This document shows positions 1 to 24,267 of a stretch of 64,000 nt of DNA, piece after piece. Source of the DNA: Bacilli bacterium (lineage in GTDB: Bacteria; Bacillota_I; Bacilli_A; RF39; UBA660); assembly GCA_017432665.1 (NCBI GenBank), contig JAFRIS010000014.1, positions 4,383-68,382 of the forward strand, given 5' to 3'. Below the pieces are notes generated by a model that saw nothing but the letters and a program-made list of their open reading frames with translations, had not been told where the DNA came from and did not search any database. Both the position numbers and the translations under genes were made by a program. How positions within the stretch are numbered: position 1 is the first letter of the stretch; every line of letters starts with the position of its first letter.

Positions 1-1
1 T

Positions 2-673
2 GATAAAACTAATAATAGTTATGATAGTGTAATTAATGTATTTAAAGATAGGGAATATACTAAAGAGTTAATTAATAAATATTGGTTTTTGACAGATAAA
101 ATTTTGGATAAAAATATTTATTATCCATTAGAAGGATATTTATTCCCTGATACATATCATTTTGAAAACAAAGACGTAGAAGTGAAAGAGATAATTGATA
201 AAGTATTGGAAGAAACTGATAATAAACTTAGCGAATATAGGGATGAATTATCTAAAGATCCACATTACTATATGACTATGGCTTCAGTTGTTGAACTAGA
301 AGGAACTAATACTACTAATAGGAAGATGATAGTAGGCATCTTTAAAAATAGAATGTCTTCTGGTATGAACATGGGTAGTGATGTTACTACATACTATGCA
401 TTGCAAAAATCTATGAATCAGGATTTAGCAAGTTCTGAATTCCTAGTAGATAATCCATATAATACAAGATCAGTTAATATGATTGGTAAAATGCCAGTAG
501 GACCTATTTGTAGTAGTAGTTTATCTAGTATTGATGCTAGTTTACATCCGACAGATAGTGATTACTTGTTCTTTGTAGCTGATAAACATGGTAATATTTA
601 CTATACTAGAACTAATGCAGAACACGATAAGAAAGTAGCAGAAATTAAAGAAAAAGGAGATTGGATTTGGTAA
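2..673 (+). CDS. mltG: Endolytic murein transglycosylase MltG/YceG, C-terminal part. The 5' end lies outside the window.
   Basis: The reading frame is open from the window edge. The conserved YYPLEGYLFPDTY motif is present. A yrrM-like methyltransferase follows, as in Bacillus yrrL-yrrM synteny. Confidence 0.8.
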   Translation, partial: DKTNNSYDSVINVFKDREYTKELINKYWFLTDKILDKNIYYPLEGYLFPDTYHFENKDVEVKEIIDKVLEETDNKLSEYRDELSKDPHYYMTMASVVELEGTNTTNRKMIVGIFKNRMSSGMNMGSDVTTYYALQKSMNQDLASSEFLVDNPYNTRSVNMIGKMPVGPICSSSLSSIDASLHPTDSDYLFFVADKHGNIYYTRTNAEHDKKVAEIKEKGDWIW

Positions 674-688
674 TCCAAGTACAATAAT

Positions 689-1279
689 ATGTTAAGCAAT
701 GATTTAATTAAAAATATGAAAGATTATGCTAAAGCAAATAATGTTCCTATTATGACTGAAGGAGGAATGCATTATTTACTTAAGTATATTAAGAAAAATA
801 AAATTAAAAACATCTTAGAAGTAGGGACAGCCATTGGTTATTCTGCTATTATGATGTGTGGAGTATCAGAGGATATTAAAGTAACTACTATCGAAAGAGA
901 TGAAAAGAGATATTTAGAAGCTATTAAAAATATAAAAAAAACTGGCTTAGAAGATAGAATACATTTAATATATAATGATGCTTTAAATGTTAGATTAGAT
1001 GATAAATATGATTTGATTTTTATTGATGCAGCTAAAGCCCAAAATAGAAAATTTTTTGAAAGATTTGAACATAATTTAATTGATGGAGGTACTATTATTA
1101 CTGATAATATGAATTTCCATGGATTAGTAGATGAAGAAGTAGAAGCTAGTATTAGTAGAAATCTTAGACAATTAGTTAGAAAAATAAGAGAGTATCGTGT
1201 CTATTTAGAAGAAAATCCTAAATATGATACAGAATTCTTAGATACAGGGGATGGAATGGCTATTAGTGTTAAAAAGTAG
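689..1279 (+). CDS. SAM-dependent O-methyltransferase of the YrrM / caffeoyl-CoA OMT family
   Basis: 196 aa with the class I methyltransferase motif EVGTAIGYSA and an acidic DAAK segment. It sits immediately after mltG. Confidence 0.75.
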   Translation: MLSNDLIKNMKDYAKANNVPIMTEGGMHYLLKYIKKNKIKNILEVGTAIGYSAIMMCGVSEDIKVTTIERDEKRYLEAIKNIKKTGLEDRIHLIYNDALNVRLDDKYDLIFIDAAKAQNRKFFERFEHNLIDGGTIITDNMNFHGLVDEEVEASISRNLRQLVRKIREYRVYLEENPKYDTEFLDTGDGMAISVKK

Positions 1280-1645
1280 GTGATAAAATGCAAATACTTA
1301 GTTGTAGTAGAACTTTAGGTACTTGCTGTAGCGATGGAGGATTAGTAGTATTATTGGATATTACTAGGAGAGTATTAAATATTATTCAATTAATTGTTCC
1401 AATTATTCTAATCATAGGAGCAACTATTGGTTTAACAAAACTAGTAATTAATCCTGAAGAAAAGAATGGGCAAAAGAAAGTAATTAATAGTTTTATTGCC
1501 GCTGTAGTAGTATTTATGATTCCAACAATAGTTAATGCGATGTTGGGAATAATGCCTAATAGTTTTAGTTTAAAAGCATGTTGGGATCAAGCTAAGCATA
1601 AAGCAGAAATAGCTAGGACTAGTAAAGCAAGATATATTAATCCTT
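1278..1645 (+). repeat. Direct repeat copy 1, about 368 bp, covering the RBS plus the 5' third of hydrolase paralog A
   Basis: It differs from copy 2 (2912-3279) at about 7 positions, i.e. about 98% identity. Similarity decays downstream. Confidence 0.85.
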
Positions 1646-2139
1646 ATGGTGATAAAGAACCATCTTCGATATTACCTAAACCAGAAGAATATGATGATAG
1701 TGAAAGAAAAACACCTTCATCAGGAGGTTCTACTTGGACAGGTGGAACTGTAACTGGTGAACAGATAATTGCTTATGCAAGTCAATTTCAACATAAAGGC
1801 TATAAAAAAGGATGTGGCTGGAAGGGAGAACCACCAGGAGAACCAACTTCATGTATCGGTCTTGTTGTTGGAGTTTATAGACATTTTGGAATCAAGGTAG
1901 ATTGTACAAATGATCCTAATAAGTATTTAAATAATCCAACAAAGTACACTGTTGTTACAAATGCTCCTCATCGTCCAGGAGATATAGTTCTTTATGAAGG
2001 ACATTATGCAATGTTAACTGGTAATGGAGATCAAATAATTCACTCAACCAGTGGTTCTAATGGAACACATTATAGTAATAGTTATAAAAAATCAAGTCAA
2101 AAATTATTAGGTATCGTACGTGTTAATGGTGTTCAATAG
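1288..2139 (+). CDS. Membrane-anchored cell-wall hydrolase: N-terminal 2-TM VirB2/TrbC-like hairpin domain fused to an NlpC/P60 cysteine peptidase domain (paralog A)
   Basis: The C-terminus has Cys (SCIGLVVGV) and His (HRPGDIV, HYAML) arranged as in NlpC/P60. The N-terminal 120 aa are homologous to the 101-aa protein at 23400 and end in the same CW(D/N)xAK motif. The RBS is AGGTGA. Confidence 0.7.
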   Translation: MQILSCSRTLGTCCSDGGLVVLLDITRRVLNIIQLIVPIILIIGATIGLTKLVINPEEKNGQKKVINSFIAAVVVFMIPTIVNAMLGIMPNSFSLKACWDQAKHKAEIARTSKARYINPYGDKEPSSILPKPEEYDDSERKTPSSGGSTWTGGTVTGEQIIAYASQFQHKGYKKGCGWKGEPPGEPTSCIGLVVGVYRHFGIKVDCTNDPNKYLNNPTKYTVVTNAPHRPGDIVLYEGHYAMLTGNGDQIIHSTSGSNGTHYSNSYKKSSQKLLGIVRVNGVQ

Positions 2140-2147
2140 GAGGGGTT

Positions 2148-2906
2148 ATGAATAGGTTTATAAAAGGAATAAAAAAGAAGTTTTATCGCTTGGATGAAAA
2201 AACTCAAAAGTCAATTATTCTCTTAGGGGCTGTTATTTTGATGACTTTAATAGTATTACTTAGTAGCCTTGAGAGAAGTAGTGATAATTTCAAAAATATT
2301 AAAAGAGATAAGAATAACTATTTAGTTTATTCAAAAGTAGAAAAGGCAGATAAGACATATCCAAAATATGTTCCAGATATTAATATAAAGTCTAATACTA
2401 TTGACCAAGTAAATGCAGATATAGATAATTATGTAGCTAATTATCTTAATACTGACAAGGCACTTGTTACTTATGAATATAGTATTAATGGAATTATTTT
2501 ATCTGTAGTTATTAAGGTAATGGATTATCAAAAAGAATATGCTCCAGAGATTGATTTTAAAACTTATAATATTAATTTAGATACTAAAGAAGTAATATCA
2601 GATCAAAGTCTATTAGAATTATTTCAAATAGATGAAGTAAAAGTTGGTAGTATTCTTGAGGCGTATTTTAAAAATTATTATGCTGAATTAGTTAAAGAAA
2701 AGTACTACGAACCAAGTGAATGTGATTATCAATGCTTTTTAGGTTATCGTGGTATTAATAATTACACAGATAATGTTCATTACTATGTAAAAGAAGGGAA
2801 TTTAATAGCTTATAAACCATTTGTCTTCTATTCAATATTTAATGATGAAGAATACTTTAAAGCAGAGCACTTTGAATTTTTATTAGTAGAGACAGAAAAA
2901 AATTAA
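2148..2906 (+). CDS. N-terminally anchored hypothetical protein lying between the two hydrolase paralogs
   Basis: 252 aa with a single N-terminal TM and a beta-rich C-terminal part. It is unique within the window. A DUF4163/DUF3298-like (RsiV-like) fold is possible but unverified. Confidence 0.45.
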   Translation: MNRFIKGIKKKFYRLDEKTQKSIILLGAVILMTLIVLLSSLERSSDNFKNIKRDKNNYLVYSKVEKADKTYPKYVPDINIKSNTIDQVNADIDNYVANYLNTDKALVTYEYSINGIILSVVIKVMDYQKEYAPEIDFKTYNINLDTKEVISDQSLLELFQIDEVKVGSILEAYFKNYYAELVKEKYYEPSECDYQCFLGYRGINNYTDNVHYYVKEGNLIAYKPFVFYSIFNDEEYFKAEHFEFLLVETEKN

Positions 2907-2911
2907 TCTCG

Positions 2912-3279
2912 AGGTGATAAAATGCAAATACTTAGTTGTAGTGGAACTTTAGGTACTTGCTGTAGTGATGGAGGATTAGTAGTATTATTGGATATTACTA
3001 GGAGAGTATTAAATATTATTCAATTAATTGTTCCACTTATTCTAATCATAGGAGCGACTATTGGTTTAACAAAACTAGTAATTAATCCTGAAGAAAAGAA
3101 TGGGCAAAAGAAAGTAATTAATAGTTTTATTGCCGCTGTAGTAGTATTTATGATTCCAACAATAGTTAATGCGATGCTGGGAATAATGCCTAATAGTTTT
3201 AGTTTAAAAGCATGTTGGGATCAAGCTAAGCATAAAGCAGAAATAGCTAGAACTAGTAAAGCAAGATATATTAATCCCT
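2912..3279 (+). repeat. Direct repeat copy 2, about 368 bp
   Basis: Near-identical to 1278-1645. The offset between copies is 1634 bp. Confidence 0.85.
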
Positions 3280-3770
3280 ATGGAGATATTAAAACAACAT
3301 CAATATTACCTAAACCAGAAGAATATGATGATAGTGAAAGAAAAACATCTTCATCAGGAGGTTCTACTTGGACAGGTGGAACTGTAACTGGTGAACAAAT
3401 AGTAGCTTATGCCATGCAATTTAAAGGAATGGGATATAGGTTGGGTTGCCATTGGAATGGAGAACTTCCATATCAAAATGCATCTTGTATTGGCTTTATC
3501 GTTGGATTATATAAACATTTTGGAATAAAAGTACCATGTACTGAAGATACGGATATGTATCTAAAAGATCCAAGTAAGTTTACAGTGGTTACTAATGGAC
3601 CACATCGTCCTGGTGATATTGTAATATTTGATGGTCACTATGCAATGTTGACAGGCAATGGAAATGAAATAATTCATTCAACAAGTACTGATGGAATTAT
3701 AGTATCTAGTAATTATCTAAAGTCTGGACAAAGTGTTTTGGGTATTGTTCATGTAAATGTTGTCCAATAG
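2922..3770 (+). CDS. Membrane-anchored cell-wall hydrolase, VirB2-like hairpin fused to NlpC/P60 (paralog B)
   Basis: The N-terminal 125 aa are nearly identical to paralog A. The C-terminal NlpC/P60 domain is divergent (SCIGFIVGL, HRPGDIV, HYAML). Confidence 0.7.
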   Translation: MQILSCSGTLGTCCSDGGLVVLLDITRRVLNIIQLIVPLILIIGATIGLTKLVINPEEKNGQKKVINSFIAAVVVFMIPTIVNAMLGIMPNSFSLKACWDQAKHKAEIARTSKARYINPYGDIKTTSILPKPEEYDDSERKTSSSGGSTWTGGTVTGEQIVAYAMQFKGMGYRLGCHWNGELPYQNASCIGFIVGLYKHFGIKVPCTEDTDMYLKDPSKFTVVTNGPHRPGDIVIFDGHYAMLTGNGNEIIHSTSTDGIIVSSNYLKSGQSVLGIVHVNVVQ

Positions 3771-3855
3771 TATTTTCTAGATAATAATGTATATGATAGG
3801 AAAGGTAACTTTCTTTTCTTTTTGTTTTGTAATATAATATCGTAGAGGTGTTCTT

Positions 3856-4704
3856 ATGAAATTATTAATAGAACCAAGTACTAAAAACAATTTATATAGT
3901 GATTATGCAGATGGCATTATTTTGCCTCTAGAAAATTATGCGGTCGAAAGTATAATTTCTTTTTCACTTGCTGAAATAAAAAAAATTACCAAGAATAGCG
4001 ATTGTGAAGTATTTATTAAAATTAATAAGAATTTACTTAATGAAGATATAGATGATTTAACTAATATTTTAAAAGAGTTGGATAAATTAAATATAACAGG
4101 TATTTTCTTTTATGATTTAGCAGTTCTAGAATTAAAAAATGAATTAAAATTAAAAACTGATTTAGTTTGGAATCAAACTCATATGGTTAATAATTATCGT
4201 ACTTGTGATTATTACTTTAATCATGGAGTTAAGTATGCTTTACTTGGAAAAGAAATTACTTTAGATGAAATAATTGAGATTATTAATAAGAGTAAAATAA
4301 CTAGTATTGTTGAAGTGGTAAGTAAGCCTAGTGTAGCTTTTTCTAAGAGAAAGTTAGTAACTAATTATTATAAAGATTTAGGAAAAACTGTTTCTAATGA
4401 TATTATTGTTAAAGAAAAGATTACTGACAGTAATTATGAGTTTATAGAGGATAATAATGGTACCAGTATTTTTTTAGATAAGATTACTAATGGTACTGTT
4501 ATTATTAAAGAATTATATGATAATAATTGTCAGTATATTATTTTTAAAGAGTATGGAATAAATGATTTCAAAGAATTAGTCATTGATACTATGAATTATA
4601 TTAGAAGTCATTGTGAAGATGAAAGATATGTTTCAAAATATTCAAAGTTAGGGGATAGTACAAATTTCTTTTTTAAGAAAACTATTTATAAGGTGAAGAA
4701 ATGA
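3856..4704 (+). CDS. Peptidase U32 family protein (YrrN-like)
   Basis: 282 aa. It sits upstream of, and is translationally coupled (ATGA overlap) to, a clear U32 peptidase, as in the yrrN-yrrO arrangement. Confidence 0.55.
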   Translation: MKLLIEPSTKNNLYSDYADGIILPLENYAVESIISFSLAEIKKITKNSDCEVFIKINKNLLNEDIDDLTNILKELDKLNITGIFFYDLAVLELKNELKLKTDLVWNQTHMVNNYRTCDYYFNHGVKYALLGKEITLDEIIEIINKSKITSIVEVVSKPSVAFSKRKLVTNYYKDLGKTVSNDIIVKEKITDSNYEFIEDNNGTSIFLDKITNGTVIIKELYDNNCQYIIFKEYGINDFKELVIDTMNYIRSHCEDERYVSKYSKLGDSTNFFFKKTIYKVKK

Positions 4705-5888
4705 AAAAAATAGAATTATTATCTCCTGCAGGAGACTTAGAAAGATTAAAAGTAACTCTTTTATATGGTGCAGATGCAGTTTATATTGGAGGAGAAAAAT
4801 ATAATTTAAGAGCTAATGCTAATAACTTTAATTTAGAAGAAATAAAAGAAGCTTGTAGTTTTGCACATAATTTAGGGAAAAAAGTACATTTAACTTTAAA
4901 TATAGTTTTCCATAATGAAGATATGTCTGGAGTAGAGGAATATATTAATGATGCAGTATCTGCAGGAATAGATGCTTTTATTGTTAGTGATCCATTTATA
5001 ATAAACTATATTAAAAGTAATTTTCCTAGGGTGGAAGTACATTTATCTACTCAAAATTCAACTAGTAATTATAAGGCTATAGAGTATTTTGAACATGAAG
5101 GTATTGATAGAGTAGTACTTGCTAGAGAACTTTCTAAAAAACAAATAAAAGAAATAATCGATAAAGTACATTGTGATATAGAAGTATTTATTCATGGTGC
5201 TATGTGTACTTGCTTTAGTGGTAGATGTGCTTTATCCAATTATGTTACTAATAGAGATGCCAATAGAGGTGGCTGTGCTCAAGTATGTCGTTTTGCTTTT
5301 GAAAATGGTAATAATAAAGAATTTACTATGGCCTTAAAAGATATGAATATGGCTGAATATATTGGTGATTTAATAGAAATAGGAGTTCGTAGTTTAAAAG
5401 TAGAAGGTAGAATGCGTTCTCTATATTACTTAGCTACTGTCATAGGTACTTATCGTGAAATAATTGATAATTATTATGCTGGTACTTTAGATGATGATAA
5501 GATGGAAGTTTTCCAAGAAAGATTAGATAGAGTAGCTAATAGAGAAACATCTACGCATTATTTTATGAAAGAAGCAGATTATACGGATCAATATTATTCA
5601 GGAAGAAGTGAAGTGTCTAATCAAGACTATTTAGGACAGGTAATTTCCTATGAAAACAACCTGCTAAAGTTTTATGAAAGAAACTACTTTGAAGTAGGAG
5701 ACTTAGTAGAAGTCTTTACTCCTCAAGGAATTCATTTTGCTTTTGTAGTAGAAGAATTATTTGATGAAGATATGAACAAAATGGATGTAGCTAGACATCC
5801 GGATAATATATATTATTTAAAAGTAGATAGTGATATTCAAATACCAGAATATTCAATGATAAAAATAGTTGAAAGAAAAAATAATTGA
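4701..5888 (+). CDS. Peptidase U32 family (collagenase-like, YrrO/PrtC-like)
   Basis: 395 aa with the U32 signature region FIHGAMCTCFSGRCALSNY and an EGRMRS segment. Confidence 0.75.
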   Translation: MKKIELLSPAGDLERLKVTLLYGADAVYIGGEKYNLRANANNFNLEEIKEACSFAHNLGKKVHLTLNIVFHNEDMSGVEEYINDAVSAGIDAFIVSDPFIINYIKSNFPRVEVHLSTQNSTSNYKAIEYFEHEGIDRVVLARELSKKQIKEIIDKVHCDIEVFIHGAMCTCFSGRCALSNYVTNRDANRGGCAQVCRFAFENGNNKEFTMALKDMNMAEYIGDLIEIGVRSLKVEGRMRSLYYLATVIGTYREIIDNYYAGTLDDDKMEVFQERLDRVANRETSTHYFMKEADYTDQYYSGRSEVSNQDYLGQVISYENNLLKFYERNYFEVGDLVEVFTPQGIHFAFVVEELFDEDMNKMDVARHPDNIYYLKVDSDIQIPEYSMIKIVERKNN

Positions 5889-5896
5889 GGTGCCAA

Positions 5897-7492
5897 ATGA
5901 AAAGGATTAATATTTTAAATTTAATATTTAGTATTTTTTTATCTATTTCAATAAATTTAAAATTGGTTATTGATAAGAATTTAGATTATTTTATTAAGAA
6001 ATTTCATATAGATATTATGTTTATAATAAAAGTAATCTTATTGAGCATCTTAATTTATTTTTTATTAAAAGTATTATTCCTTTTATTTGATAAAATACCT
6101 CTTAAAAACAAAAAATTAATATTAGACAAAAAAAAGACTATTTTAATATTCATAAGTATTTTTATAACATCAATGTTATATTTAATAGTTTATTACCCTG
6201 CGACATTCTTAAATGATACATTGTACATGTTATATGGACCTCTACATAGAGGAAGTCCTATAATTTATGGGATATTTATGTCAATACTTTTCTTTTCTTT
6301 AAAAAGTTTTGTTACTCCAACAATTGCTGTGTTTATTATGTCAATTATTCAAGCAATAGTTGCAAGTATTATTCTTACTTATGTAATTACTTGGTTCAAC
6401 AAAAGATTTAATAATGAAATACTAACTATTATCCTAATATGTTATTATGTGTTTATGCCTATTATAGCCAGTTATAATATAGCTCTAAATAAAGATAGTC
6501 CGTTTTCTTTAATGATATTATTGTTCTTTGTCTTTATATTTGAAATAGTTGAATCTAAAGGTAAGGTTTTAACTGATAAAAAGTTCTTATTAAATATCTT
6601 CTTAGCATCTATTTTCGCATCATATATTAGAAATAATGGTTTGTTTGTAGTATTAACATCATTATTAATTGTTTTTTCTATTTATGGATTTAAAAAATAT
6701 AGAAAGCAAAGTCTAATTGTTTTGTCATTAGTAGTTATGTTTTCTTTTGTTCCTCCAATCGCTTCTAAGTTATTGCATGCTGAACATTTAAAAAGAGAGT
6801 GGTATACTGTTCCTATTCAACAAGTAGGATATCTTGGTAAATATCATTCAAATAGATTAACAGACGAAGATTATAAAGTGTTATCTAAGTTTATTAATAA
6901 TCCTAAAAAGACATTAAAAAAACATTATGATGTGTTTACTGTTGATGAATTAAAATTTAATAAAAATTTTGATAGATATAAATTCAATGACTATTCAAAA
7001 GAATTTTTACATTTGTGGATTAGTAAATATCCAAATAATATTTCTCCATATACTAAGAGTTATTTATTAAATAGTTATCATTTGTGGTCTATTAATAAGT
7101 TTGATAGATCACAAAGTGTTATTTATGGCACAGCTGTTTTTGGTATAAAAAAGAGTAGACATATTTATCATAAAGAGATATTACCTAAAAATATTCAAGA
7201 AAAACTATTGAGATTCTATTATAAAACATGTGTTTATTTGAATCCTGCTGCTTGTTTTATTCTCTTATTAATAATTAATTTATATGCTTTAGAGAGAAAG
7301 AAAAAAGACATAGTTGTTTTGAGTGTTCCACTATTATCATTATGGTTTGTCTTAATACTTGGTTCACCATATTCATCTGCTTTAAGATATATGGCTCCAT
7401 ATATTTATATTTTACCTATATTAATGTTATATACATTTAAAATAACAAGAAAGGATGTTAGAAATGGATTATCTAGAAAAAGCAAAAAATAA
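5897..7492 (+). CDS. Polytopic integral membrane protein of unknown function
   Basis: About 10 predicted N-terminal TM helices followed by a soluble C-terminal domain. The ATG at 5897 follows a GAGGTG RBS. Confidence 0.5.
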   Translation: MKRINILNLIFSIFLSISINLKLVIDKNLDYFIKKFHIDIMFIIKVILLSILIYFLLKVLFLLFDKIPLKNKKLILDKKKTILIFISIFITSMLYLIVYYPATFLNDTLYMLYGPLHRGSPIIYGIFMSILFFSLKSFVTPTIAVFIMSIIQAIVASIILTYVITWFNKRFNNEILTIILICYYVFMPIIASYNIALNKDSPFSLMILLFFVFIFEIVESKGKVLTDKKFLLNIFLASIFASYIRNNGLFVVLTSLLIVFSIYGFKKYRKQSLIVLSLVVMFSFVPPIASKLLHAEHLKREWYTVPIQQVGYLGKYHSNRLTDEDYKVLSKFINNPKKTLKKHYDVFTVDELKFNKNFDRYKFNDYSKEFLHLWISKYPNNISPYTKSYLLNSYHLWSINKFDRSQSVIYGTAVFGIKKSRHIYHKEILPKNIQEKLLRFYYKTCVYLNPAACFILLLIINLYALERKKKDIVVLSVPLLSLWFVLILGSPYSSALRYMAPYIYILPILMLYTFKITRKDVRNGLSRKSKK

Positions 7493-9316: not shown

Positions 9317-10861
9317 ATGATTATTCGTAAACCATATGCATTCCTTATCAAAAACTTTAGAAAAGTTCACGCAGTATTACTACTTATAAGTTTATATGTA
9401 TTGTTTAAACTATTAGATGTAAGTAGTTTTATTAGTGATTTTATGAGTTTTGGTATTTATGATTATTCTAATAATCCAATTGGCAAGCATGTTACTATAT
9501 TTTTACATGTTGCAATTTTTGTGTTGTTAGTTGGCAGCTTCTTTCTAGTATTATTATTAAAAAGAAAAGAAAAACCATGGAAAATATATTTAGTCCCAAT
9601 AATTGAATATGTTGCTTTATTCCTGGTGTTAGGAATGATTACTAGTTTCTTTAATCATTTTAATAATGGAATCGCAACTACTGATGTTCGTTTATCAAGA
9701 GATTTATTAGTTATACTTATTTTAGGTAATTTTGCTACTATAGGTATTTTTGGTATGCGTTTATTAGGCATGGATATTAATAAATTTAATTTCGCTTCTG
9801 ATGAAGAATTCTTAGAATTAGCTGAAGAAGATCGCGAAGAAGTAGAATTAAGAGTAAAAATTGATAAAAATATTTTTATTAGATTATATAATCGAACTGT
9901 TAGAAATCTAAATTATTTCTACTTAGAGCATAAAAGATTATGTAATTCTTTTTTTGGAATTATTGGTTTAGTACTATTAGCTGTAATTGCTAAAACTATT
10001 TTTGTCACTAATAAAAGTTATAATGAAGGTGATTTTTATTCAGCTAATGGTTATACCATTAAAATTAATAAGTCGTATTTTACAGATAAAGACTACAAAG
10101 GAGAAATAATTTCTAAAGATAGTAACTTTGTAGTTGTTGATTTAACTATTACTAACAATGCTGAGTCTAGAATAATTAAACTAGATAATTTTCACTTAAA
10201 AACAGGAGTTAGTGATTTTACTACTACTAGAAAGACTTATGAAAAGGAGTTTCAAGATTTAGGAACTACTTATAACGAAAAGAAAGAATTAAAAAGAGAG
10301 GAAACTGCTCAAATAATTATTGTTTTTAAAGTAGCTAAAGAATTGAATAAAGATAATTTTGCCCTTTTTTATCAAGAGGGTACAGGAACACTTAGAAAAA
10401 TTAAATTAAATATTACTGATATTAGTGAAATAAAAGATAAAGGAATTGTTAAAATTGGAGAGAATTTAACTCTTAAATTAAAAAGAAAAGAAACGATTTC
10501 TTTAGATAGTTATGCTTTTACTGATAAAGTTACTTATCCGATTAGAAAATGTAATACAGAAAAGTGTGTTATAGAAAAGGTTTCCTATAATGCAACCAAA
10601 GGAAATAAAGTCTTAAAAGTAGACTTTGCTTCAGATAATTTTGAAGGCAAAGACATGGTTGACTTTTGTGCTGATTATGGTAAAATAAATTATATAGATA
10701 ATAATAAGATGGAACATTCCGTAGAGTTTAAATATCCTTTCCAAAATCAAGCTATTGGAAAGACTCTTTATACTCTTGTCCCTGATGAGGTTGTGAAGTC
10801 TGAAACATTGGAATTTGTCTATGTAATTAGAAATGAAAAGTATACTTATAAGTTGAAATAA
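9317..10861 (+). CDS. Membrane protein with 4 N-terminal TM helices and a beta-rich extracytoplasmic C-terminal domain
   Basis: 514 aa. The C-terminal region is of the DUF4352-like type (unverified). It is the first gene of the long co-directional block. Confidence 0.45.
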   Translation: MIIRKPYAFLIKNFRKVHAVLLLISLYVLFKLLDVSSFISDFMSFGIYDYSNNPIGKHVTIFLHVAIFVLLVGSFFLVLLLKRKEKPWKIYLVPIIEYVALFLVLGMITSFFNHFNNGIATTDVRLSRDLLVILILGNFATIGIFGMRLLGMDINKFNFASDEEFLELAEEDREEVELRVKIDKNIFIRLYNRTVRNLNYFYLEHKRLCNSFFGIIGLVLLAVIAKTIFVTNKSYNEGDFYSANGYTIKINKSYFTDKDYKGEIISKDSNFVVVDLTITNNAESRIIKLDNFHLKTGVSDFTTTRKTYEKEFQDLGTTYNEKKELKREETAQIIIVFKVAKELNKDNFALFYQEGTGTLRKIKLNITDISEIKDKGIVKIGENLTLKLKRKETISLDSYAFTDKVTYPIRKCNTEKCVIEKVSYNATKGNKVLKVDFASDNFEGKDMVDFCADYGKINYIDNNKMEHSVEFKYPFQNQAIGKTLYTLVPDEVVKSETLEFVYVIRNEKYTYKLK

Positions 10862-10871
10862 GGAGATATTT

Positions 10872-12653
10872 ATGAGTGATGCACTAAAGGATAAAATGAA
10901 GATAGCTATTACTGCAGCTATCATTGGGTTGTTTATTTGGTTTTTAGTTGTCTCTCCAATGATTACTTTTCATCGTAATGAAAAGAAAGTAGAAGAAGCT
11001 GCTAAAAGATATTTTGATCTTTATAGTAATGAGCTTCCTACGGGTGAGAGAGTAAAGACTGTTAGCTTAATAACGCTATATGATAAAGCCTTTATGAAGG
11101 AAGATGTTTATATACCATATACTAAAAAAACTTGTTCGGTTAATGATAGCTGGGTAAAAGTTAGAAAAGTAAATGGAGAATATAAATATTATACTTACTT
11201 AAAATGTGGAGTGTTAAACTCAACTGTCGATCATAAAGGACCAGAAATAAAATTATATGGTGATGAAGAAATGACAGTTAATAGAGGAGAGAAATACAAA
11301 GAACCGGGTGTTAAGAGTGTGGTTGACAACTCTGATGGTAAAATGAGTCTTGAATCTGTAACGGTCAAGGGTAAAGTTGATACATCTGAGATAGGAACTT
11401 ATGATGTTCAATATGTTGCGTTTGATTCATTGAGTAATAAAACTGTCGTTACTAGAACAGTTACAGTTGTTCAAAAATTAGGACCGACAGTTAAGAAAGC
11501 TACAGGAAATGTTGATTATTATGTTGGGGATGCTGACAACAATTATATTTATTTCTCTAATATGTTATTTAGAATAATAGGATCAAATGGTAATAATGTT
11601 AAAATCATTGCTGATAAAGATATTGCTAATGTTAATTATGAAGGTATTGATGAATGGTTTAAATATTATGAAAAGCATTTAACAGATGAGGCTAAGAAAT
11701 TAATTGTTAAGTCTAAGTATTGTGATATGGGTCTATCAAAGGGTACTACTGATACTACTCAATGTAATCATTATGGGACAGAAAAGAACTTTGGATTAAT
11801 TTCAATTGATGAAATTAACAAAGCTACACCAAAGGGTGAAAACAGTTTCTTGATGCCTGAGACGGTATCGTGGATAGCTAATATTAAAAATGCAGAAGAG
11901 GCTTATACAGTTATAGTATTTTCTGAGAGTGCTACAGAATATTCTAAGAAACATAATTATGGTGTACGACCAGTTATAACTATTGATGGAGAAACATTAA
12001 TAAAATCTGGTGATGGTACTGAAGAAAAACCATACATTTTAACTGATTATAAGAAAGTAAAGAAGAATACAGAATTAAACAAGAGATATCCTGGAGAATA
12101 TATTACTTATGGAGGAGTTACTTGGAGAATAATTGAAACTAATAGTGATGGAACTACTAAAGTAATATGTGATGAAGAATTGGCTGATGGTGATAATTAT
12201 CTTACTTTTGCTGATCCTGAAGGACTAAAAAATCACATCTATAATCCGGAAAAGAAAGATAATGTTGGATATTTTGTTAATAATCATTCTAGTGAATATA
12301 TAGATACAGGTTATTTTGTAACACATGAAATAAAGGTTCCTATTTATGAAAAAGAACCAATGTATAAAAAAGAAGTAGAAACTAAGAAATATACTGTTAA
12401 ACTATCAGCGCCAAATATGTATGAAATGTTTAGTGCTAGTCCAGCTAAGACATTCGTAGAATCTTATGGATTAATTAATTCTTCAAAAGATGCGATTGAA
12501 AATCCAGGAGTAGATAATGACGGTGTTGTTCTATATAGTTATGAATCAACAAATTATCAATATGGTGTACGACCAGTTGCTTATTTTGATAAGAGAGTTG
12601 TAATAAATGGTGGTAAAGGTACTGAAAATAGTCCTTTCAAAGTAGAAAAGTAG
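10872..12653 (+). CDS. N-anchored surface protein with an Ig-like DUF5011 domain and repeated GVRPV...GxGT..PY modules
   Basis: N-terminal TM. DUF5011-like segment (GPEIKLYGDEEMTVNRGEKYKEPGVK...GTYDVQYVAFDSLSNKTVVTRTVTVV). The YGVRPV motif occurs twice. It is a paralog of 34649-35902. Confidence 0.6.
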   Translation: MSDALKDKMKIAITAAIIGLFIWFLVVSPMITFHRNEKKVEEAAKRYFDLYSNELPTGERVKTVSLITLYDKAFMKEDVYIPYTKKTCSVNDSWVKVRKVNGEYKYYTYLKCGVLNSTVDHKGPEIKLYGDEEMTVNRGEKYKEPGVKSVVDNSDGKMSLESVTVKGKVDTSEIGTYDVQYVAFDSLSNKTVVTRTVTVVQKLGPTVKKATGNVDYYVGDADNNYIYFSNMLFRIIGSNGNNVKIIADKDIANVNYEGIDEWFKYYEKHLTDEAKKLIVKSKYCDMGLSKGTTDTTQCNHYGTEKNFGLISIDEINKATPKGENSFLMPETVSWIANIKNAEEAYTVIVFSESATEYSKKHNYGVRPVITIDGETLIKSGDGTEEKPYILTDYKKVKKNTELNKRYPGEYITYGGVTWRIIETNSDGTTKVICDEELADGDNYLTFADPEGLKNHIYNPEKKDNVGYFVNNHSSEYIDTGYFVTHEIKVPIYEKEPMYKKEVETKKYTVKLSAPNMYEMFSASPAKTFVESYGLINSSKDAIENPGVDNDGVVLYSYESTNYQYGVRPVAYFDKRVVINGGKGTENSPFKVEK

Positions 12654-12661
12654 GTGATAGA

Positions 12662-13474
12662 TTGGATAAGAAAAGAAAAAGAAAAGGGGAAAAAGTTGAT
12701 ATCTTATCAATAATAATGCTCCTGTTACTGATTGCGATCGGAACATTGGCATTTGAATTAAAAAATAGTACTGACTATCAAACTCAATCTAGAGAGTTAG
12801 AAATAAAAGAAGCTCAAAATAATGATAATAATGATAAAAAGACGGTTGGATGGTTAAGAGTTCAAGGAACAAATATCGATCTTCCTATAATATATGCGCC
12901 ATTTTACGATTTCGCATATGAAACGGGTAATTTTGCTTGGACTGAGGCAGATTTTAAAGAATTAAACAATATTGTTTATATTACTGGTCACAATATTAAA
13001 AATATGTCAGCTAGACCACTGATTGCTGATGAAAGTCATGATCGATTTGAGCAGCTAATGAGTTATGTATATGTTGAATTTGCTAAAGAAAATCAATTTA
13101 TTCAATATACATTTAATGGAGAAGATTATTTATATAGAATCTATTCAATTGCTTTTATTGATGAATCTGATATAGATATGTATAACAGAGGAGAATATAC
13201 TAAAGATGATATGAACCGATTTATCAAAACTACTAATGAGAAGAGTATCTATAAATATGATGTAGATGTTAATAATGAAGATAAATTTATTTCATTAAAT
13301 ACATGTACGAATATGTTTGGAGAAAGTGAAAATATTCGTATAACTATAAACGCTAGACTTGTTCGAGACGATGAAAAAGCAAAACTTGCTCAAGTAAAAA
13401 AATCTGAGCAATATAGAATCATAGATAATATTATGGAAGGTGGAGATTCTGATGAAGAAACAGATGAAGTTTAA
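12662..13474 (+). CDS. srtB: Class B sortase
   Basis: Basic N-terminus followed by a TM. VGWL, ITGHN (His), ISLNTCT (Cys) and RITINARLV (Arg) align with the S. aureus SrtB catalytic residues. TTG start after an AGGTGA RBS. Confidence 0.75.
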   Translation: MDKKRKRKGEKVDILSIIMLLLLIAIGTLAFELKNSTDYQTQSRELEIKEAQNNDNNDKKTVGWLRVQGTNIDLPIIYAPFYDFAYETGNFAWTEADFKELNNIVYITGHNIKNMSARPLIADESHDRFEQLMSYVYVEFAKENQFIQYTFNGEDYLYRIYSIAFIDESDIDMYNRGEYTKDDMNRFIKTTNEKSIYKYDVDVNNEDKFISLNTCTNMFGESENIRITINARLVRDDEKAKLAQVKKSEQYRIIDNIMEGGDSDEETDEV

Positions 13475-16469
13475 AAAAGGAATTATAGGGGTTGCAGTAA
13501 TCATTATTGCTGCGGTAGTATTCTTTTCAGCAAAGTCTATGAACAAAGTTGTAGCAGCTAATAATTCTTGCAATAATGCTACAGAATTACAACAATACTA
13601 TAACTTAGCATATGATTGGTCGAATGATGACAAAAAGTTAATTCTCACGACTAAACACGGTAGTTTTAGAATGATTGCAATAAGCCATCCTGAATACTTT
13701 ACAAATACTTTTACTAAAGATTCAGATGGGTACTATAAGATAGATAATGCAAAAGGAACAATTGATAGAGATCATAAACTTACATTGACGATTAAGGATG
13801 TTTCAAGTTTAAATATTCAAAATGAAGATTATGGATTTACTATGAGACTAGCATTATCAGAAAATGATAGTGTAAAAGGATGCCTTTCAATGGCAGAGTT
13901 CAACAGAACTCATTCAGGAGCAACTTTTGAGTCTGGATTAATTGAAATTGAACTTCCAAAGAGTAGTATTACTGCTGGTGGAGCACCTGGTGTTGATAAT
14001 AGTAATTATAATAGAGCTTGTTTGGCTCTAAGAGAAGGAAAAGATCCAACAGGAAAGATTAATGTTTCTGGTGTTAATTATTTAAAATTATATAACGCTA
14101 GTTATCGTGAAGATTATAAAGCATTAGTTCCAAGTTGTTGGCAAGCAAAAGTTTCTAACCCATTTGAAGAAAATGAAATGATTGAAATAATTCGTATCGC
14201 TTTATCATCAACGTATGAACAACATCATTTATCAGTAGGTGAAGGTGATACCGACGGTGGAACTGCTTGGTTAATCAATTTCGATAATGTAGTTAAAGCA
14301 GCTAAAGAAGAAGATAAAACTGCTAAGACTAATAAAGAAAAACATGTATTCTATACTGATGGAAAAAGAAATTTCTTTACTGCTAAAAAAGGTACAAAAG
14401 TATTTGAATTTGGTAATAAAGATAAAAATGTTGGTATAGGAATGAAATGTAGAATTAAGGCTAATTCAGAGGAGAGAGCTACTTTAGATTATTCTAATTT
14501 ATTAGAACATAGTGGAGTAGATTCTAGTGGTAATCCAATTTATAACATTAATGCTAATACTCAACATTATTATGCATGGAATGAATTGATTGAAACAGTT
14601 ACTTATAAATGGAATTACACTAAAGGAAATAGTTTATCAGATAAAAAGAAAACAGAAGTAGTAAATGCTTGTACTAGAATTTGTGAAGAAGCTGTAGAAG
14701 TTAAATATGGACCTCCAGTTGCTTCTAAAGCAGGATTATGTTTTGAATATCAAGTACAAGTAACAAGTAGAGTTAAATGTAAAGCAATAATTAATGCTAA
14801 ACCTCCAAAAGAACCTAAGGTATGTGAACCAAATCCTAAATGTAATAATGTGCCTGGTTATATTCACCAAGCTGGTGGTAATGAAGAATTTGCAGCATGT
14901 ATCCATGAATGTGATGGTGGAAAATACACTAAAGCATGTAGTGATGCTTGTTATGCAGAAGTATATGAAGGTGCTGATAATAAAACAGCAGCTCGTATAG
15001 ATACAGCTAGAACTGAGCAATTAGGATTAAGCAGTGCCTGGTTTAAAGGATATTACAAGTGGAGTGGCGGATCTATTCAATGGGTAAGTCAAGGAAAGAA
15101 AAATACTTATGCTAGATATTATAAACTGTTTGAATATGGAAAAACTTCAAGAGATCATGCTGGTTATGCTGGTAAACAATATAGACCGGTTAATGGATTT
15201 AAACGTAGGATTAAGCCAACTCGTTGTAAAGATAGTTGTTATTTTAGAGGATGTAGTCAAACTCAATATCTAAATAAAGATGAGGCGCATGAAGATTACA
15301 TCAGTAACTTAAAGAAATATAATGCAGCTATTGCTAAATGTAAGGCTAGTGCTTCATGTACAACAAAAACAGCTACATTTACAATTAAAACTGATTATAA
15401 GAGCGGTAATGGACAAACTGTAACAGTTGATTATCCTTATACAGGAAATACTCCTACAACTCCAGAAACATTAACAAGTAGTGATAATGCTAATAATTGT
15501 CATAATCCTGGTAATGTTACAAAAGATAAAGATATTATCTTAAAATATGCTGGATGTTATGCTAAATGTGGTCAAGGACTTCAATATCAAAGTAGATGGA
15601 GTTTCCCAGGATCATGGATTAACAAAAAGACTGGAGAACTTTCATTTGTACCAAAGAATGGAACAGGATGGACTGAAAAAGATGATAAGTTCTGTATTCC
15701 ATTAGATGCTCAAGACGTTAATTCTAAGTGGTGGAAATACTATTATGCATTATATAATGCAAATCATGTTACTTCATATAATACTACTCAAGCAGCTATT
15801 GCAAACTGTATAAGTCTTCTTCCAGAAACAGTTGCTAGTGTTACAGAAAGCGACATTGATAAATGGAATATTAAAGGTTCTACTAGAAACTTTGGATATT
15901 ATGGATGGAACTTTGATATATCTTGCTTCTATGCATTGAATACTAAGTTGAATAAAACGACAACAACTACTACAGAATATACAAATAGTTGTGTTCCAAA
16001 CAATCCACAATCTGCATACAAAATTAGAACGGTTGATTTGAAGAACATGTTCCCAGATAATAGCAAAGCTTCTGGAGCACGTGAACCAGGATTCAACTGG
16101 TCAAGCAATGCCAATATCTTAGCAAGCAATGGTAAGGTAGAGCCTAATCAACAAGTTATGCCTTCAGTATATGCTCAAAAAGTTCAAAGTGAAGGTTATA
16201 ATATTTACAACAACAATAATATTGATTATGAATTTGAATTAACAAAAGAAATGATCAAAAATATAAAAGGAAATGATAGAAATTACACTAATTTCACAGG
16301 TAACATGGTTACTCGAAATGGTATGGTTTCATATCAAAGTGATGTTATTAGAAAAGGAGCGTTTGCTTCATCTAGTAATAAAGTAATGAATACTGCGGCT
16401 ATTGGATGTAACAATGTAGAAAACTACAGAAGTGCAGTATGTAGCAATATACAAGAGGAGGGGAAATAA
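13452..16469 (+). CDS. Large Cys-rich secreted protein (about 1005 aa) with a signal peptide
   Basis: MKKQMKFKKGIIGVAVIIIAAVVFFSA signal peptide and more than 40 Cys. There is no C-terminal LPXTG/NPQTN sorting signal and no C-terminal TM. It lies between the sortase and the Tad genes. Confidence 0.6.
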   Translation: MKKQMKFKKGIIGVAVIIIAAVVFFSAKSMNKVVAANNSCNNATELQQYYNLAYDWSNDDKKLILTTKHGSFRMIAISHPEYFTNTFTKDSDGYYKIDNAKGTIDRDHKLTLTIKDVSSLNIQNEDYGFTMRLALSENDSVKGCLSMAEFNRTHSGATFESGLIEIELPKSSITAGGAPGVDNSNYNRACLALREGKDPTGKINVSGVNYLKLYNASYREDYKALVPSCWQAKVSNPFEENEMIEIIRIALSSTYEQHHLSVGEGDTDGGTAWLINFDNVVKAAKEEDKTAKTNKEKHVFYTDGKRNFFTAKKGTKVFEFGNKDKNVGIGMKCRIKANSEERATLDYSNLLEHSGVDSSGNPIYNINANTQHYYAWNELIETVTYKWNYTKGNSLSDKKKTEVVNACTRICEEAVEVKYGPPVASKAGLCFEYQVQVTSRVKCKAIINAKPPKEPKVCEPNPKCNNVPGYIHQAGGNEEFAACIHECDGGKYTKACSDACYAEVYEGADNKTAARIDTARTEQLGLSSAWFKGYYKWSGGSIQWVSQGKKNTYARYYKLFEYGKTSRDHAGYAGKQYRPVNGFKRRIKPTRCKDSCYFRGCSQTQYLNKDEAHEDYISNLKKYNAAIAKCKASASCTTKTATFTIKTDYKSGNGQTVTVDYPYTGNTPTTPETLTSSDNANNCHNPGNVTKDKDIILKYAGCYAKCGQGLQYQSRWSFPGSWINKKTGELSFVPKNGTGWTEKDDKFCIPLDAQDVNSKWWKYYYALYNANHVTSYNTTQAAIANCISLLPETVASVTESDIDKWNIKGSTRNFGYYGWNFDISCFYALNTKLNKTTTTTTEYTNSCVPNNPQSAYKIRTVDLKNMFPDNSKASGAREPGFNWSSNANILASNGKVEPNQQVMPSVYAQKVQSEGYNIYNNNNIDYEFELTKEMIKNIKGNDRNYTNFTGNMVTRNGMVSYQSDVIRKGAFASSSNKVMNTAAIGCNNVENYRSAVCSNIQEEGK

Positions 16470-16472
16470 TAT

Positions 16473-16961
16473 ATGAACAAAGGAATTTTAACAGTAGGAA
16501 TTATCCTTCTTAGTGTAATTGCATTAGTTTTAATAAATGTATTAACAAATTATTCTACAGGTAGTGAGTTAGATTACTATTTAGTAAAAGAAACAACAGA
16601 CGCTGCTATGGAAGATGCAATTGATATTTCTTATCTAAGAACATGCGGTGTCTATCGATTAGATAAAGAAAAGTTCGTAGAGAGCTTTCTTTATCGATTC
16701 GTCGATAGTGTAGATACAACTAGAGGTTATACTATTGGTTTTTATGATATTAACGAAGTACCACCAAAGGTTAGTGTAAAAGTTGATTCATTAACGGCGT
16801 TAACTTTTAAAGCTAATACAGGAAATGGAGAAGAAGATATCGAAGGAAACATTAGTACTAGTTATGATGCTATACTTGAATCTAAGTATTTAACAGATTT
16901 ACCTACAGAAGAAGGAATGCAGAGTAAAACAAGTGATGCTTGTAAGGCTGTAAAAGGATAA
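16473..16961 (+). CDS. Small N-anchored protein with a prepilin-like N-terminus (MNKG-ILTVGIILL); possible pseudopilin
   Basis: 162 aa with a short basic leader ending in Gly followed by a hydrophobic stretch. It sits in the Tad locus. Confidence 0.4.
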   Translation: MNKGILTVGIILLSVIALVLINVLTNYSTGSELDYYLVKETTDAAMEDAIDISYLRTCGVYRLDKEKFVESFLYRFVDSVDTTRGYTIGFYDINEVPPKVSVKVDSLTALTFKANTGNGEEDIEGNISTSYDAILESKYLTDLPTEEGMQSKTSDACKAVKG

Positions 16962-16982
16962 TAAGGAAGGTGAGAGGATAAA

Positions 16983-17801
16983 ATGGGAAATTTAAGTACA
17001 AGCTTTAAAAAATTTATGCAAAACAAAAATACAGTTACTGTAGTAGGAGTTATTGCAGCAATCTTCGTATTATATATTGCATATACAATGAGAATAAACA
17101 AAGCGATAAATCCAATTGTTGTTCCTTATGCATCTGAACAGATACCTGCAGGAACTCAAATAACTGAATCAATGGTTGATACTAGAGAAGTACCACCTGC
17201 AATGTTAAAGGGTGATGTAATTCAAAATAAGAGTGAAATCATTGATAAATATTCAGCTGCTGATGTAGTTATTCCAGAAGGAAGTTTATTCTACAAAAGA
17301 GCAGTAGTTGAAAAAGAACAATTACCTGCTAATATCATATTAGACTATCCTAAAGGATATGTACTATATAATTTACCAGTTGATATTTCTGATACTTATG
17401 GTAACTCAGTATATCCAGGTAACTATATTGATATTTGGTTAAAAGCTGTTTATAAAATAGCTGATGAAGAAAAACCAACTGCTGAAGAAAAAGCAAATGC
17501 TAATAAGATTATGTATGGTAAATTAATATCTAACATTCAAGTATTAGCAGTTAAAGATGGTTCTGGTAGACCAGTATTCCAAAATATAGATGAAGAAAGA
17601 GTACCAGCAATGATTGTATTTGCTGTACCAGAAGATATTTATACATTGCTTTCTAAAGCAAGTTACATGAGAACTTATGATACTGATATCGTATTAGTTC
17701 CAACGAATGAAAGTGTTAAAGATGAACCAGGAGAACTAGAAATTAGTAGTGAACAACTAAAAGAATGGATCAATGAAAACACTTATTGGACAGAACATTA
17801 A
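16983..17801 (+). CDS. cpaB: Flp pilus assembly protein CpaB/RcpC (SAF domain)
   Basis: N-terminal TM followed by SAF/CpaB-like domains. It lies immediately upstream of the TadA ATPase. Confidence 0.7.
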   Translation: MGNLSTSFKKFMQNKNTVTVVGVIAAIFVLYIAYTMRINKAINPIVVPYASEQIPAGTQITESMVDTREVPPAMLKGDVIQNKSEIIDKYSAADVVIPEGSLFYKRAVVEKEQLPANIILDYPKGYVLYNLPVDISDTYGNSVYPGNYIDIWLKAVYKIADEEKPTAEEKANANKIMYGKLISNIQVLAVKDGSGRPVFQNIDEERVPAMIVFAVPEDIYTLLSKASYMRTYDTDIVLVPTNESVKDEPGELEISSEQLKEWINENTYWTEH

Positions 17802-17840
17802 AATAAAGAAAAAAAGAAAGAATAAAGGGATGTGAGCTCA

Positions 17841-19235: not shown

Positions 19236-19249
19236 AAGGAGTTGAGGAT

Positions 19250-20955: not shown

Positions 20956-21044
20956 TATGTAAAAAATCACATTAAAAAGTTGTTTAAAAATAATAGTTTT
21001 GATATAATTAATATAGATAGATTGTAGAAAGGATGGGATAATTA

Positions 21045-21212: not shown

Positions 21213-21234
21213 TTAATTAAGGGGTGAATGTTAA

Positions 21235-21690: not shown

Positions 21691-21712
21691 TAAGCATTTA
21701 AGAGGTGATTAG

Positions 21713-22234: not shown

Positions 22235-22265
22235 TGACAAAGAGAATAAATAGAGGTCGATAATA

Positions 22266-23345: not shown

Positions 23346-23399
23346 TTTGTTTGACAAAACAATTTATTGATATTATAATGTTGGAAAGGAGATGTATTT

Positions 23400-24253: not shown

Positions 24254-24267
24254 AGAGGTGGAAGTTA

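Follow-up and report, generated by a model that had tools for sequence, protein, structure and literature searches.

We analyzed a 64,000-nucleotide (nt) stretch of DNA from an uncultured Bacilli bacterium (contig JAFRIS010000014.1 of assembly GCA_017432665.1; hereafter, the window), in which two neighboring genes encode predicted cell wall hydrolases, A and B, that begin with a two-helix membrane hairpin related to pilin-like proteins of a type IV secretion system (T4SS) encoded further downstream. The reading we favor, with a probability of roughly 60%, is that this hairpin derives from a pilin and now serves generally for anchoring or export, and that the enzymes bearing it are the cell's own wall-remodeling tools rather than dedicated parts of the T4SS. 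The main sequence features are listed here, with their sources in parentheses.

1288-2139, + strand: hydrolase A, 283 amino acids (aa), with the hairpin at residues 1-105, a linker at 106-150, and an NlpC/P60 domain at ~151-283 (Pfam, AlphaFold2, Foldseek)
1288-1602, + strand: pilin-like, two-helix membrane hairpin of A (PF18895, hhalign)
1278-1763, + strand: 5' module, copy 1, comprising the ribosome-binding site, hairpin, and linker of A (DNA alignment, divergence)
1644-1668, + strand: divergent patch within the repeat, residues 119-127, reading GDKEPSS in A and GDIKTTS in B (9 of 25 nt differ)
2148-2906, + strand: partner gene, 252 aa, predicted single-pass membrane protein with an RsiV-like (DUF4163/DUF3298-type) ectodomain (AlphaFold2, Foldseek)
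2912-3397, + strand: 5' module, copy 2, of hydrolase B (DNA alignment)
2922-3770, + strand: hydrolase B, 282 aa, built like A with a different ancient catalytic type (Pfam, identity comparison)
23400-23705, + strand: stand-alone VirB2-like hairpin protein, 101 aa (BLASTP, hhalign, hmmsearch)
23738-24253, + strand: second hairpin protein, 171 aa, with an N-terminal signal-like extension (BLASTP, hmmsearch)

The hairpins of both hydrolases match the Pfam family T4SS_pilin (PF18895) at residues 24-84, with scores of 28.2 bits for A and 27.7 bits for B against a gathering cut-off of 26.6. The stand-alone proteins at 23400 and 23738 fall under this cut-off, at 17.4 and 18.7 bits, with spurious G-protein-coupled receptor (GPCR) matches beside them. 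Direct comparison by BLASTP aligned residues 1-122 of the hydrolases with the 23400 protein at 33% identity over 95 aa (E 5e-16), reaching the terminal CW(D/N)xAK motif, and matched the hydrolase hairpin to the 171-aa protein with E 3e-10 (hmmsearch E 4.7e-14). The original prediction, made from the window sequence, had proposed that the hairpin is homologous to the 23400 protein, and this proposal survives profile-profile comparison: a profile of fusion proteins only (A3) and one of 34 stand-alone pilins (A4) were aligned by hhalign over 89 columns with a probability of 99.2% (E 1.5e-19). The two profiles share the non-hydrophobic motifs EEK in the loop, FxxP, and a terminal CWxxAK. The CW(D/N)xAK ending, which had been noted as common to all three proteins, is indeed so placed, since ACWDQAK closes the hairpin in A and B and GCWNAAK forms the C-terminal end of the 101-aa protein. 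In a reciprocal six-frame hmmsearch of the window, four open reading frames (ORFs) alone gave strong matches (A, B, 23400, and 23738), reciprocal matches reaching E 1e-15 to 1e-17 and all other ORFs having E 8e-4 or weaker. The next-best match to the hydrolase-hairpin profile is a weak one (E 8e-4) at residues 58-119 of a TrbL protein (24268-26496), and it may be compositional or represent a distant internal hairpin. Together, these alignments indicate that the hairpin of A and B is homologous to the 101-aa pilin-like protein.

Conserved positions accompany the shared motifs. Within the hairpin of the hydrolase family, C6, G11, C13, C14, Q34, P38, L41, P79, and C98 are invariant; Cys6, Cys13, and Cys14 precede helix 1, and Cys98 follows helix 2. 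Across the 34 aligned members of the pilin family, C5 and C96 are invariant. The 101-aa pilin itself matches at least 688 database clusters, and the 120 listed are 65-99% identical to it. A lipoprotein reading of the sequence LGTC was ruled out because no signal-peptide h-region lies ahead of it. When profiles A3 and A4 were searched against the sequences of the Protein Data Bank (PDB), neither found a VirB2, TraA, or TrbC pilin up to E 10, short hydrophobic proteins being hard to link by sequence. Our designation "VirB2-like" has three grounds: membership of the Pfam family, a two-helix hairpin, and, for 23400 and 23738, a location directly upstream of predicted TrbL_4/VirB6, VirB3-sized, split VirB4, and VirD4 proteins. 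These two are small, stand-alone proteins encoded beside virB3, virB4, and virB6, which is not true of the hairpin of A and B, a domain of a 283-aa enzyme encoded 19.6 kb away.

The C-terminal domains of A and B are predicted to be peptidoglycan endopeptidases of the NlpC/P60 (C40) type. As single sequences they score borderline against PF00877 (22.8 bits for A and 24.4 bits for B; cut-off 23). A profile of 50 family sequences removes the doubt left by these scores, since it matches solved NlpC/P60 domains with E 3.8e-10, including MepS (5e-9), as well as the structures of Spr, CwlO, and LytE and those of Tn916-like Orf hydrolases (4hpe and 9ubf; E ~1e-5). The AlphaFold2 model of A (mean predicted local distance difference test score, pLDDT, 74.6) has helices at residues 17-54, 59-88, and 94-111, disorder at 113-150, and a catalytic domain with pLDDT ~90, which Foldseek superposes on MepS, SAV0400, and Cg1735 with probabilities of 0.99-1.0. 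The Cys-His-His triad is intact: H239 never varies among 50 aligned family members, and C189 and H252 are each kept in at least 90%. Pfam, the family profile, and AlphaFold2 thus bear out the original description of two NlpC/P60 hydrolases with a shared N-terminal hairpin, which NCBI annotates just as "C40 family peptidase"; an NCBIfam scan of the hydrolase, partner, and pilin gave no match. The catalytic part of B is 64% identical to that of A in amino acid sequence, yet 90% identical to its orthologue in another species, L003_2. At least five catalytic types occur among the species, in differing combinations. The catalytic domains of A and B are old paralogue types, held across species under strong purifying selection.

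The hairpin is by no means confined to these two enzymes. A fusion-only hairpin profile searched against 1.84 billion representative sequences found 5,638 matches at E <=1e-3 and 697 at E <=1e-10. Among 95 long matches, the C-terminal domains were NlpC/P60 in 38, Peptidase_C39_2 in nine, CHAP in six, and C70 in five; M23, glucosaminidase, and Amidase_5 domains occurred in three each, S11 DD-carboxypeptidase in two, and YkuD, GDSL, and others in one each. The hairpin of these distant fusions matches PF18895 in 57 of the 95, and the 38 that match PF00877 do so with a best E of 1.4e-28. Hairpin-enzyme fusions are ~270-450 aa long. Three of them inspected singly (P0050, P0051, and P0251) all lie among housekeeping genes. 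We also scanned metagenomes with an alignment of eight hairpin sequences, which yielded 80 loci with ~10 kb of flanking DNA. Some of these contigs carry tandem arrays of two to five hairpin-enzyme genes with a common linker motif, Y-I-D/N-P-Y ... Y-E-K-G. Homologues of VirB4, VirD4, TrbL, and TadA were found within 10 kb at none of the 80 loci. The hairpin is a widely reused N-terminal module for many envelope enzymes in these bacteria. Two of the arrays deserve individual mention. L052 (516-7552) and L088 (6027-10984) contain four and five hairpin-enzyme genes, respectively, whose C-termini are unrelated to one another (C39-like, SGNH, NlpC/P60-like, YkuD, and unassigned); three hairpins in L052 are 76-82% identical, and the catalytic parts that follow them are unrelated.

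Between A and B lies the 252-aa gene that the original prediction had taken for a unique one. It proves instead to be a conserved partner: it adjoins a hydrolase gene in 11 of 13 distinct related loci scored with hidden Markov models (HMMs), the exceptions being L015 and L018, and it occurs in ~30 metagenome loci. One of the 11 is an unrelated locus, L013, where a homologue (34% identity, E 1e-35) follows the distant hairpin-enzyme gene P0050. There is one partner gene per one to three hydrolase genes, upstream or downstream of them, and it is missing from most loci away from mltG. None of its 43 homologues, for which "Bacilli bacterium" is the sole source organism name, has a precomputed Pfam domain, and scanning the aligned family against Pfam produced no credible match. 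AlphaFold2 predicts (pLDDT 87.8) a transmembrane helix at residues 17-47 with ~16 residues ahead of it. Against the PDB, Foldseek matched the partner to 3cyg (E 5.4e-6; template modeling, TM, score 0.40-0.52), to the RsiV-lysozyme complex 5jen (E 3.7e-4; TM 0.39-0.47), and to the DUF3298 structures 3s5t and 4e72, an overall moderate similarity (E 5e-6 to 7e-2, TM 0.25-0.5). An anti-sigma factor was considered and rejected, because the ~16-residue tail leaves no cytoplasmic domain and the neighborhood contains no sigma-factor gene. RsiV directly binds a peptidoglycan hydrolase, lysozyme (PMC5014341). The RsiV-like fold together with this precedent motivates, and leaves unproven, a role for the partner as keeper or regulator of the hydrolases.

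The hydrolases and their partner occupy 1278-3770, within a housekeeping string (ireB-ruvX-DUF1292-mltG-yrrM-[module]-U32-U32) next to tRNA-modification genes. The immediate flanks are as follows.

89-673, + strand: end of mltG (ORF list)
689-1279, + strand: yrrM-type O-methyltransferase gene (ORF list)
3856-4704 and 4701-5888, + strand: two U32 peptidase-family genes (ORF list)

All genes from mltG to hydrolase B are on the + strand with intergenic gaps of at most 16 nt, and 85 nt separate B from the first U32 gene. No terminator-like site was found on the + strand of 1-7080, where promoter-like sites occur only at chance level; this is compatible with one long transcript and proves nothing. 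In Bacillus subtilis, yrrL(mltG)-yrrM-yrrN-yrrO run contiguously, and the insertion between yrrM and the U32 genes that the original prediction described as an interruption of this synteny is real. It is not a recent event, being old and lineage wide. A search of genome contigs with a catalytic-domain pattern gave seven loci, and every related species fetched, each represented by a metagenome-assembled genome (MAG), has the order YceG/MltG-O-methyltransferase-[one to three hydrolases plus the 252-aa gene]-U32-U32-HD-GreA-surface proteins-sortase, with flanking proteins at identities down to 57%. The same insertion site is used in ~30 of the 80 metagenome loci. Gene order inside the module varies, from A-partner-B in the window to A-B-partner-C in L003 and partner-hydrolase, hydrolase-partner, or partner-hydrolase-hydrolase elsewhere, and such variation in order and copy number is the outcome expected of unequal exchange between identical 5' modules. 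Searches of plasmid and phage collections with the hairpin found no match, and this, the use of one site across species, and the lack of an integrase or relaxase domain in the ORFs scanned from 5.9 to 44.8 kb (that at 21045-21212 excepted) rule out a recent mobile insertion. We therefore regard the module as an old, vertically inherited core locus in a lineage of uncultured, low-GC Bacilli. Further along the conserved string, between GreA and the Tad genes, 9317-16469 encodes surface proteins of 514 aa, 593 aa (with a bacterial Ig-like domain), and 1009 aa and a sortase; this block is syntenic across species and fast evolving (45-72% identity), and genes for Ig-like homologues are also found close to several small, stand-alone hairpin genes at the metagenome loci L066 and L068.

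The two hydrolase genes are a mosaic. A near-identical block begins at the ribosome-binding site (position 1278, AGGTGATAAAATG) and extends through the linker, the copies at 1278-1763 and 2912-3397 being ~98% identical over ~486 bp at a constant offset of 1634 nt. The original prediction had the start and the identity of this block right and its length, ~370 bp, too short. Between A and B there are 6 mismatches in 1278-1643 (98.4% identity), 9 differences in the 25 nt of the patch at 1644-1668, and 1 mismatch in 1669-1763, and from 1763 to the stop codon the DNA identity is ~65-70%. Divergence along the genes is strongly non-uniform, with catalytic domains that are, as had been noted, just moderately similar. 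By the method of Nei and Gojobori, synonymous divergence (dS) between A and B rises from 0.045 in the hairpin to 1.16 in the catalytic part. Because synonymous differences cannot be erased by selection on the protein, this contrast argues that the 5' block was copied between A and B.

Comparison across species shows the same separation of histories. Catalytic domains pair between species, at amino acid identities of 93% (A and L003_1), 90% (B and L003_2), and 92% (L003_3 and L012), against 50-66% between paralogue types. Hairpins pair within genomes, at 98% in the window, 97-98% among the three genes of L003, and 95% in L006, against 55-66% between species (~70% in DNA). The ratio of nonsynonymous to synonymous divergence (dN/dS) between orthologues is 0.06 in the catalytic domain (range 0.06-0.10), 0.28 in the hairpin, and ~0.7-1.0 in the linker, and that between paralogues is 0.22. 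The original prediction had offered two explanations for the mosaic: the first, recent gene conversion of the 5' module, is upheld by the dS contrast and this pairing, and the second, diversifying selection on the hydrolase domain, is ruled out by these ratios and by the 90-93% identity of catalytic domains across species. In P0001, an A-type protein from another strain, only five residues depart from A (I39L, and KEPS to IKTT at 123-126), and each of them is in the state found in B, an indication that the conversion tract is polymorphic between strains and that conversion is ongoing. Of 53 differences between A and P0002, 44 fall within residues 1-149. At the mltG site in metagenomes, hairpins within a locus are 100% (L021), 97% (L034), and 90% (L047) identical, and the rest of the protein 38-51%; the tandem arrays L052, L072, L074, and L087 show partial homogenization (67-82%). 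These data indicate that the 5' ~486 bp are kept near-identical within genomes by recurrent gene conversion and diverge quickly between species. Between the orthologous hairpins at 1288-1602 and L003:8923-9237, dS is ~1.07, greater than the catalytic dS of the same gene (0.63); this excess could mean that the 5' module is occasionally replaced from other paralogues or genomes.

The original prediction had placed the hydrolase pair ~20 kb from the T4SS, and the pair indeed lies 19.6 kb upstream of the pilin/VirB6/VirB4/VirD4 genes. The Tad/T4SS cluster (16473-34633) encodes DUF5411, CpaB, TadA, two TadB/C-like proteins, a 55-aa Flp-like ORF, two TadE-like proteins, the two hairpin pilins, TrbL/VirB6 (24268-26496), a split VirB4, a SpoIID-domain protein, and VirD4; the 23400 pilin is followed by the 23738 hairpin protein, TrbL/VirB6, a VirB3-sized protein, and VirB4. 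Domain scans of ORFs from 5.9 to 44.8 kb, with the 55-aa ORF at 21045-21212 unscanned, turned up neither a relaxase nor an integrase, and ordinary genes follow past 44.8 kb. The cluster is syntenic in another species (L016/L017), with identities of 97% for VirB4, 96% for VirD4, 92-95% for TadB/C, 80% and 65% for the pilins, and 68% for TrbL. Given this synteny, we take the Tad/T4SS to be a conserved chromosomal machine and not a recent mobile element. Three of its genes have features of their own. VirB4 is split into a 196-aa N-terminal ORF (26785-27375; TraC-like; NCBIfam VirB4_plasma) and a 599-aa ATPase (27372-29171) that overlap at ATGA, and since the same split (185 and 599 aa) is present in L016 and L017, it represents true gene organization and not an assembly error. 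Between VirB4 and VirD4, 29194-31449 encodes a 751-aa protein with a SpoIID domain at residues 398-517; this protein is a candidate for the cluster's own wall-remodeling enzyme, although the domain would be unusual for a VirB1 equivalent. The 55-aa ORF (MKAATGELNLTVITLIAIGAV...), between the TadC-like and TadE-like genes, resembles a Flp-type prepilin, and a 49-aa gene is called at its place in L016 and L017.

How might the hydrolases work? Since the catalytic domain must be extracellular and the hairpin has two membrane helices, we infer an N-out/C-out hairpin closed by a disulfide. The hairpin would insert into the membrane with both ends outside the cell, and a disulfide linking Cys98 to the conserved cysteines near the N-terminus would staple it. 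The ~45-residue disordered linker may then act as a leash that holds the catalytic domain at the outer face of the membrane, where the RsiV-like ectodomain of the partner could bind the tethered enzymes and restrain or position them. This scheme accords with our favored reading, in which the hairpin anchors the cell's own wall enzymes; neither gene context nor the range of enzymes fused to the hairpin supports a dedicated T4SS role. Several considerations weigh against our reading. We infer the topology, the disulfides, the enzyme activity, and the partner binding alike. The hairpin retains pilin-specific features (Q34, P38, P79, the CW motif, and paired cysteines) that would be superfluous in a simple anchor. 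A T4SS with pilins lies ~20 kb downstream, in a Tad/T4SS cluster that is itself syntenic in L016/L017. A hydrolase (P0024) and a pilin (P0064) may share a contig in that other species as well, and a functional link of the hydrolases to the T4SS is therefore plausible. Hairpin homogenization, seen in L052 even across unrelated catalytic domains, could reflect selection for a common genome-specific partner as opposed to neutral conversion. Nor is homogenization universal, hairpins in L088, L022, L077, and L018 being ~50% identical (between-locus median 43%).

The strongest competitor to this reading is the one raised by the original prediction, that A and B are accessory hydrolases of the T4SS/Tad apparatus, in which the hairpin docks to the pilin pool or the VirB6/TrbL platform so that peptidoglycan is cut at the very site where the envelope-spanning apparatus or a pilus is assembled, in the manner of VirB1. 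We consider this possible, and clearly less probable than a general anchor. The homologous pilin is encoded directly upstream of VirB6, VirB3, and VirB4, hairpin and pilin have the cysteine pairs and CW motif in common, and the hydrolase locus and the relaxase-less T4SS/Tad cluster sit on one conserved chromosomal stretch. Within-genome homogenization would fit a shared docking partner, and faster evolution than in the core ATPases (96-97%) is seen both in exposed components of the T4SS (pilins, 65-80%; TrbL, 68%) and in the hairpin (55-66%), different species being compared in these figures. A dedicated accessory role is harder to reconcile with the cluster's own 751-aa SpoIID-domain wall enzyme and with the position of the hydrolase genes, which are in a housekeeping string beside tRNA-modification genes, are never inside the cluster at any locus examined, and had T4SS genes within 10 kb at 0 of the 80 metagenome hairpin loci. 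The hairpin is, moreover, also fused to DD-carboxypeptidase, L,D-transpeptidase, esterases, and other enzymes, and the first two of these misfit a hole-punching function.

A more speculative proposal, which we rate as unlikely, treats the hairpin as a targeting module by which wall enzymes enter the assembly pathway used by the VirB2-like pilins of this chromosomal, relaxase-less T4SS. The enzymes would be carried at or along a pilus-like conduit and either open the producer's thick wall for the apparatus or breach that of a partner cell, with the RsiV-like keeper preventing self-damage. If true, this would make the fusions a pilin-enzyme class without described precedent, and they would constitute indirect evidence that a T4SS of Bacillota builds a VirB2-type structure.

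Less probable still is that A and B are antibacterial effectors, displayed on a pilus or delivered by the T4SS, with the hairpin as trafficking domain and the RsiV-like protein as the producer's immunity factor. The architecture invites the comparison: a shared N-terminal module precedes a variable enzymatic C-terminus, a small membrane protein with a hydrolase-binding fold is encoded alongside, tandem arrays carry differing C-termini, and species combine at least five catalytic types in different ways. Relaxase-less T4SSs with arrays of VirB2-like pilins are, in addition, essential in epibiotic Patescibacteria (PMC12102498, PMC12857230). The evolutionary pattern is the reverse of that of polymorphic toxins, however, in that the catalytic part is conserved (90-93% identity, dN/dS 0.06) and the N-terminal module variable (55-66%). 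The C-termini include biosynthetic and trimming enzymes (S11, YkuD), which are not toxins, and the partner gene is missing from many fusion loci (L015, L018, and most of those away from mltG). Searches with PADLOC returned no match, on which ground a defense-system reading was rejected, and there were no mobile-element matches. Last, we give almost no credence to a compositional resemblance between pairs of hydrophobic helices combined with a simple recent tandem duplication, as the sub-threshold PF18895 scores of 23400 and 23738, their GPCR matches, and the lack of a match to solved VirB2, TraA, or TrbC pilins might suggest, since it is refuted by the hhalign result with its matching non-hydrophobic motifs, by the reciprocal HMM search, and by a contrast in dS and a cross-species pairing of catalytic domains that no recent whole-gene duplication can yield.

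The presence of the hairpin on thousands of envelope enzymes offers a handle on the function of pilin-like proteins in single-membrane bacteria and on how wall hydrolases are positioned and restrained in reduced-genome Bacilli. In addition, nature provides here a clean case of domain-restricted gene conversion, in which anchor and linker are homogenized and old catalytic types preserved. Gram-positive T4SSs are said in 2025 reviews to lack VirB2 pilins, with Patescibacteria as the sole exception (PMC12857230, PMC12102498), and a pilus has yet to be demonstrated for any monoderm T4SS (PMC12857230). The uncultured gut and rumen Bacilli considered here carry VirB2-like pilins beside VirB6, VirB3, and VirB4, which looks like a second monoderm case after Patescibacteria.

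Our search of the literature found no description of a pilin-hydrolase fusion, and A and B combine an ordinary enzyme type with an unusual architecture not described before. In catalytic fold and Cys-His-His triad they resemble known NlpC/P60 (MEROPS C40) endopeptidases, such as E. coli MepS/Spr and B. subtilis CwlO and LytE, of which CwlO functions tethered at the membrane. Those enzymes are placed by a signal peptide, a lipobox, LysM or SH3 domains, or FtsEX, whereas A and B have a pilin-type cysteine hairpin as their putative anchor and are paired with an RsiV-like membrane protein. The VirB1-like hydrolases of Gram-positive conjugation systems (PrgK of pCF10, TraG of pIP501, CwlT of ICEBs1, Orf14 of Tn916, and TcpG of pCW3) are likewise membrane associated, often of CHAP or NlpC/P60 type, and found in T4SS-bearing hosts. 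Their genes lie within the transfer clusters of mobile elements and specify an ordinary transmembrane segment at the N-terminus; A and B, in contrast, are chromosomal and ~20 kb from a relaxase-less T4SS that has a SpoIID-domain enzyme of its own. The partner is like RsiV and other DUF4163-DUF3298 proteins (5jen, 3cyg, 3s5t, and 4e72) in its predicted ectodomain fold; RsiV has an anti-sigma domain and a sigV partner, and the 252-aa protein has neither, nor a Pfam match at the sequence level.

The PF18895 pilins of Patescibacteria form arrays of 2-11 genes with a relaxase-less T4SS (PMC12102498), and the two-helix hairpin, the paralogue arrays, and a neighborhood in which no relaxase gene was detected recur here. 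Those pilins are small, stand-alone proteins encoded beside virB4, whereas in A and B the hairpin forms the N-terminus of enzymes whose genes are distant from the T4SS, in a Bacilli host. Finally, the sharp boundary of the repeat and the recombination of 3' cassettes among species follow the layout known from concerted evolution of 5' modules in tandem paralogues and from polymorphic toxins; in the latter the 3' toxins vary between strains, whereas the 3' cassettes here are conserved orthologous types under purifying selection.

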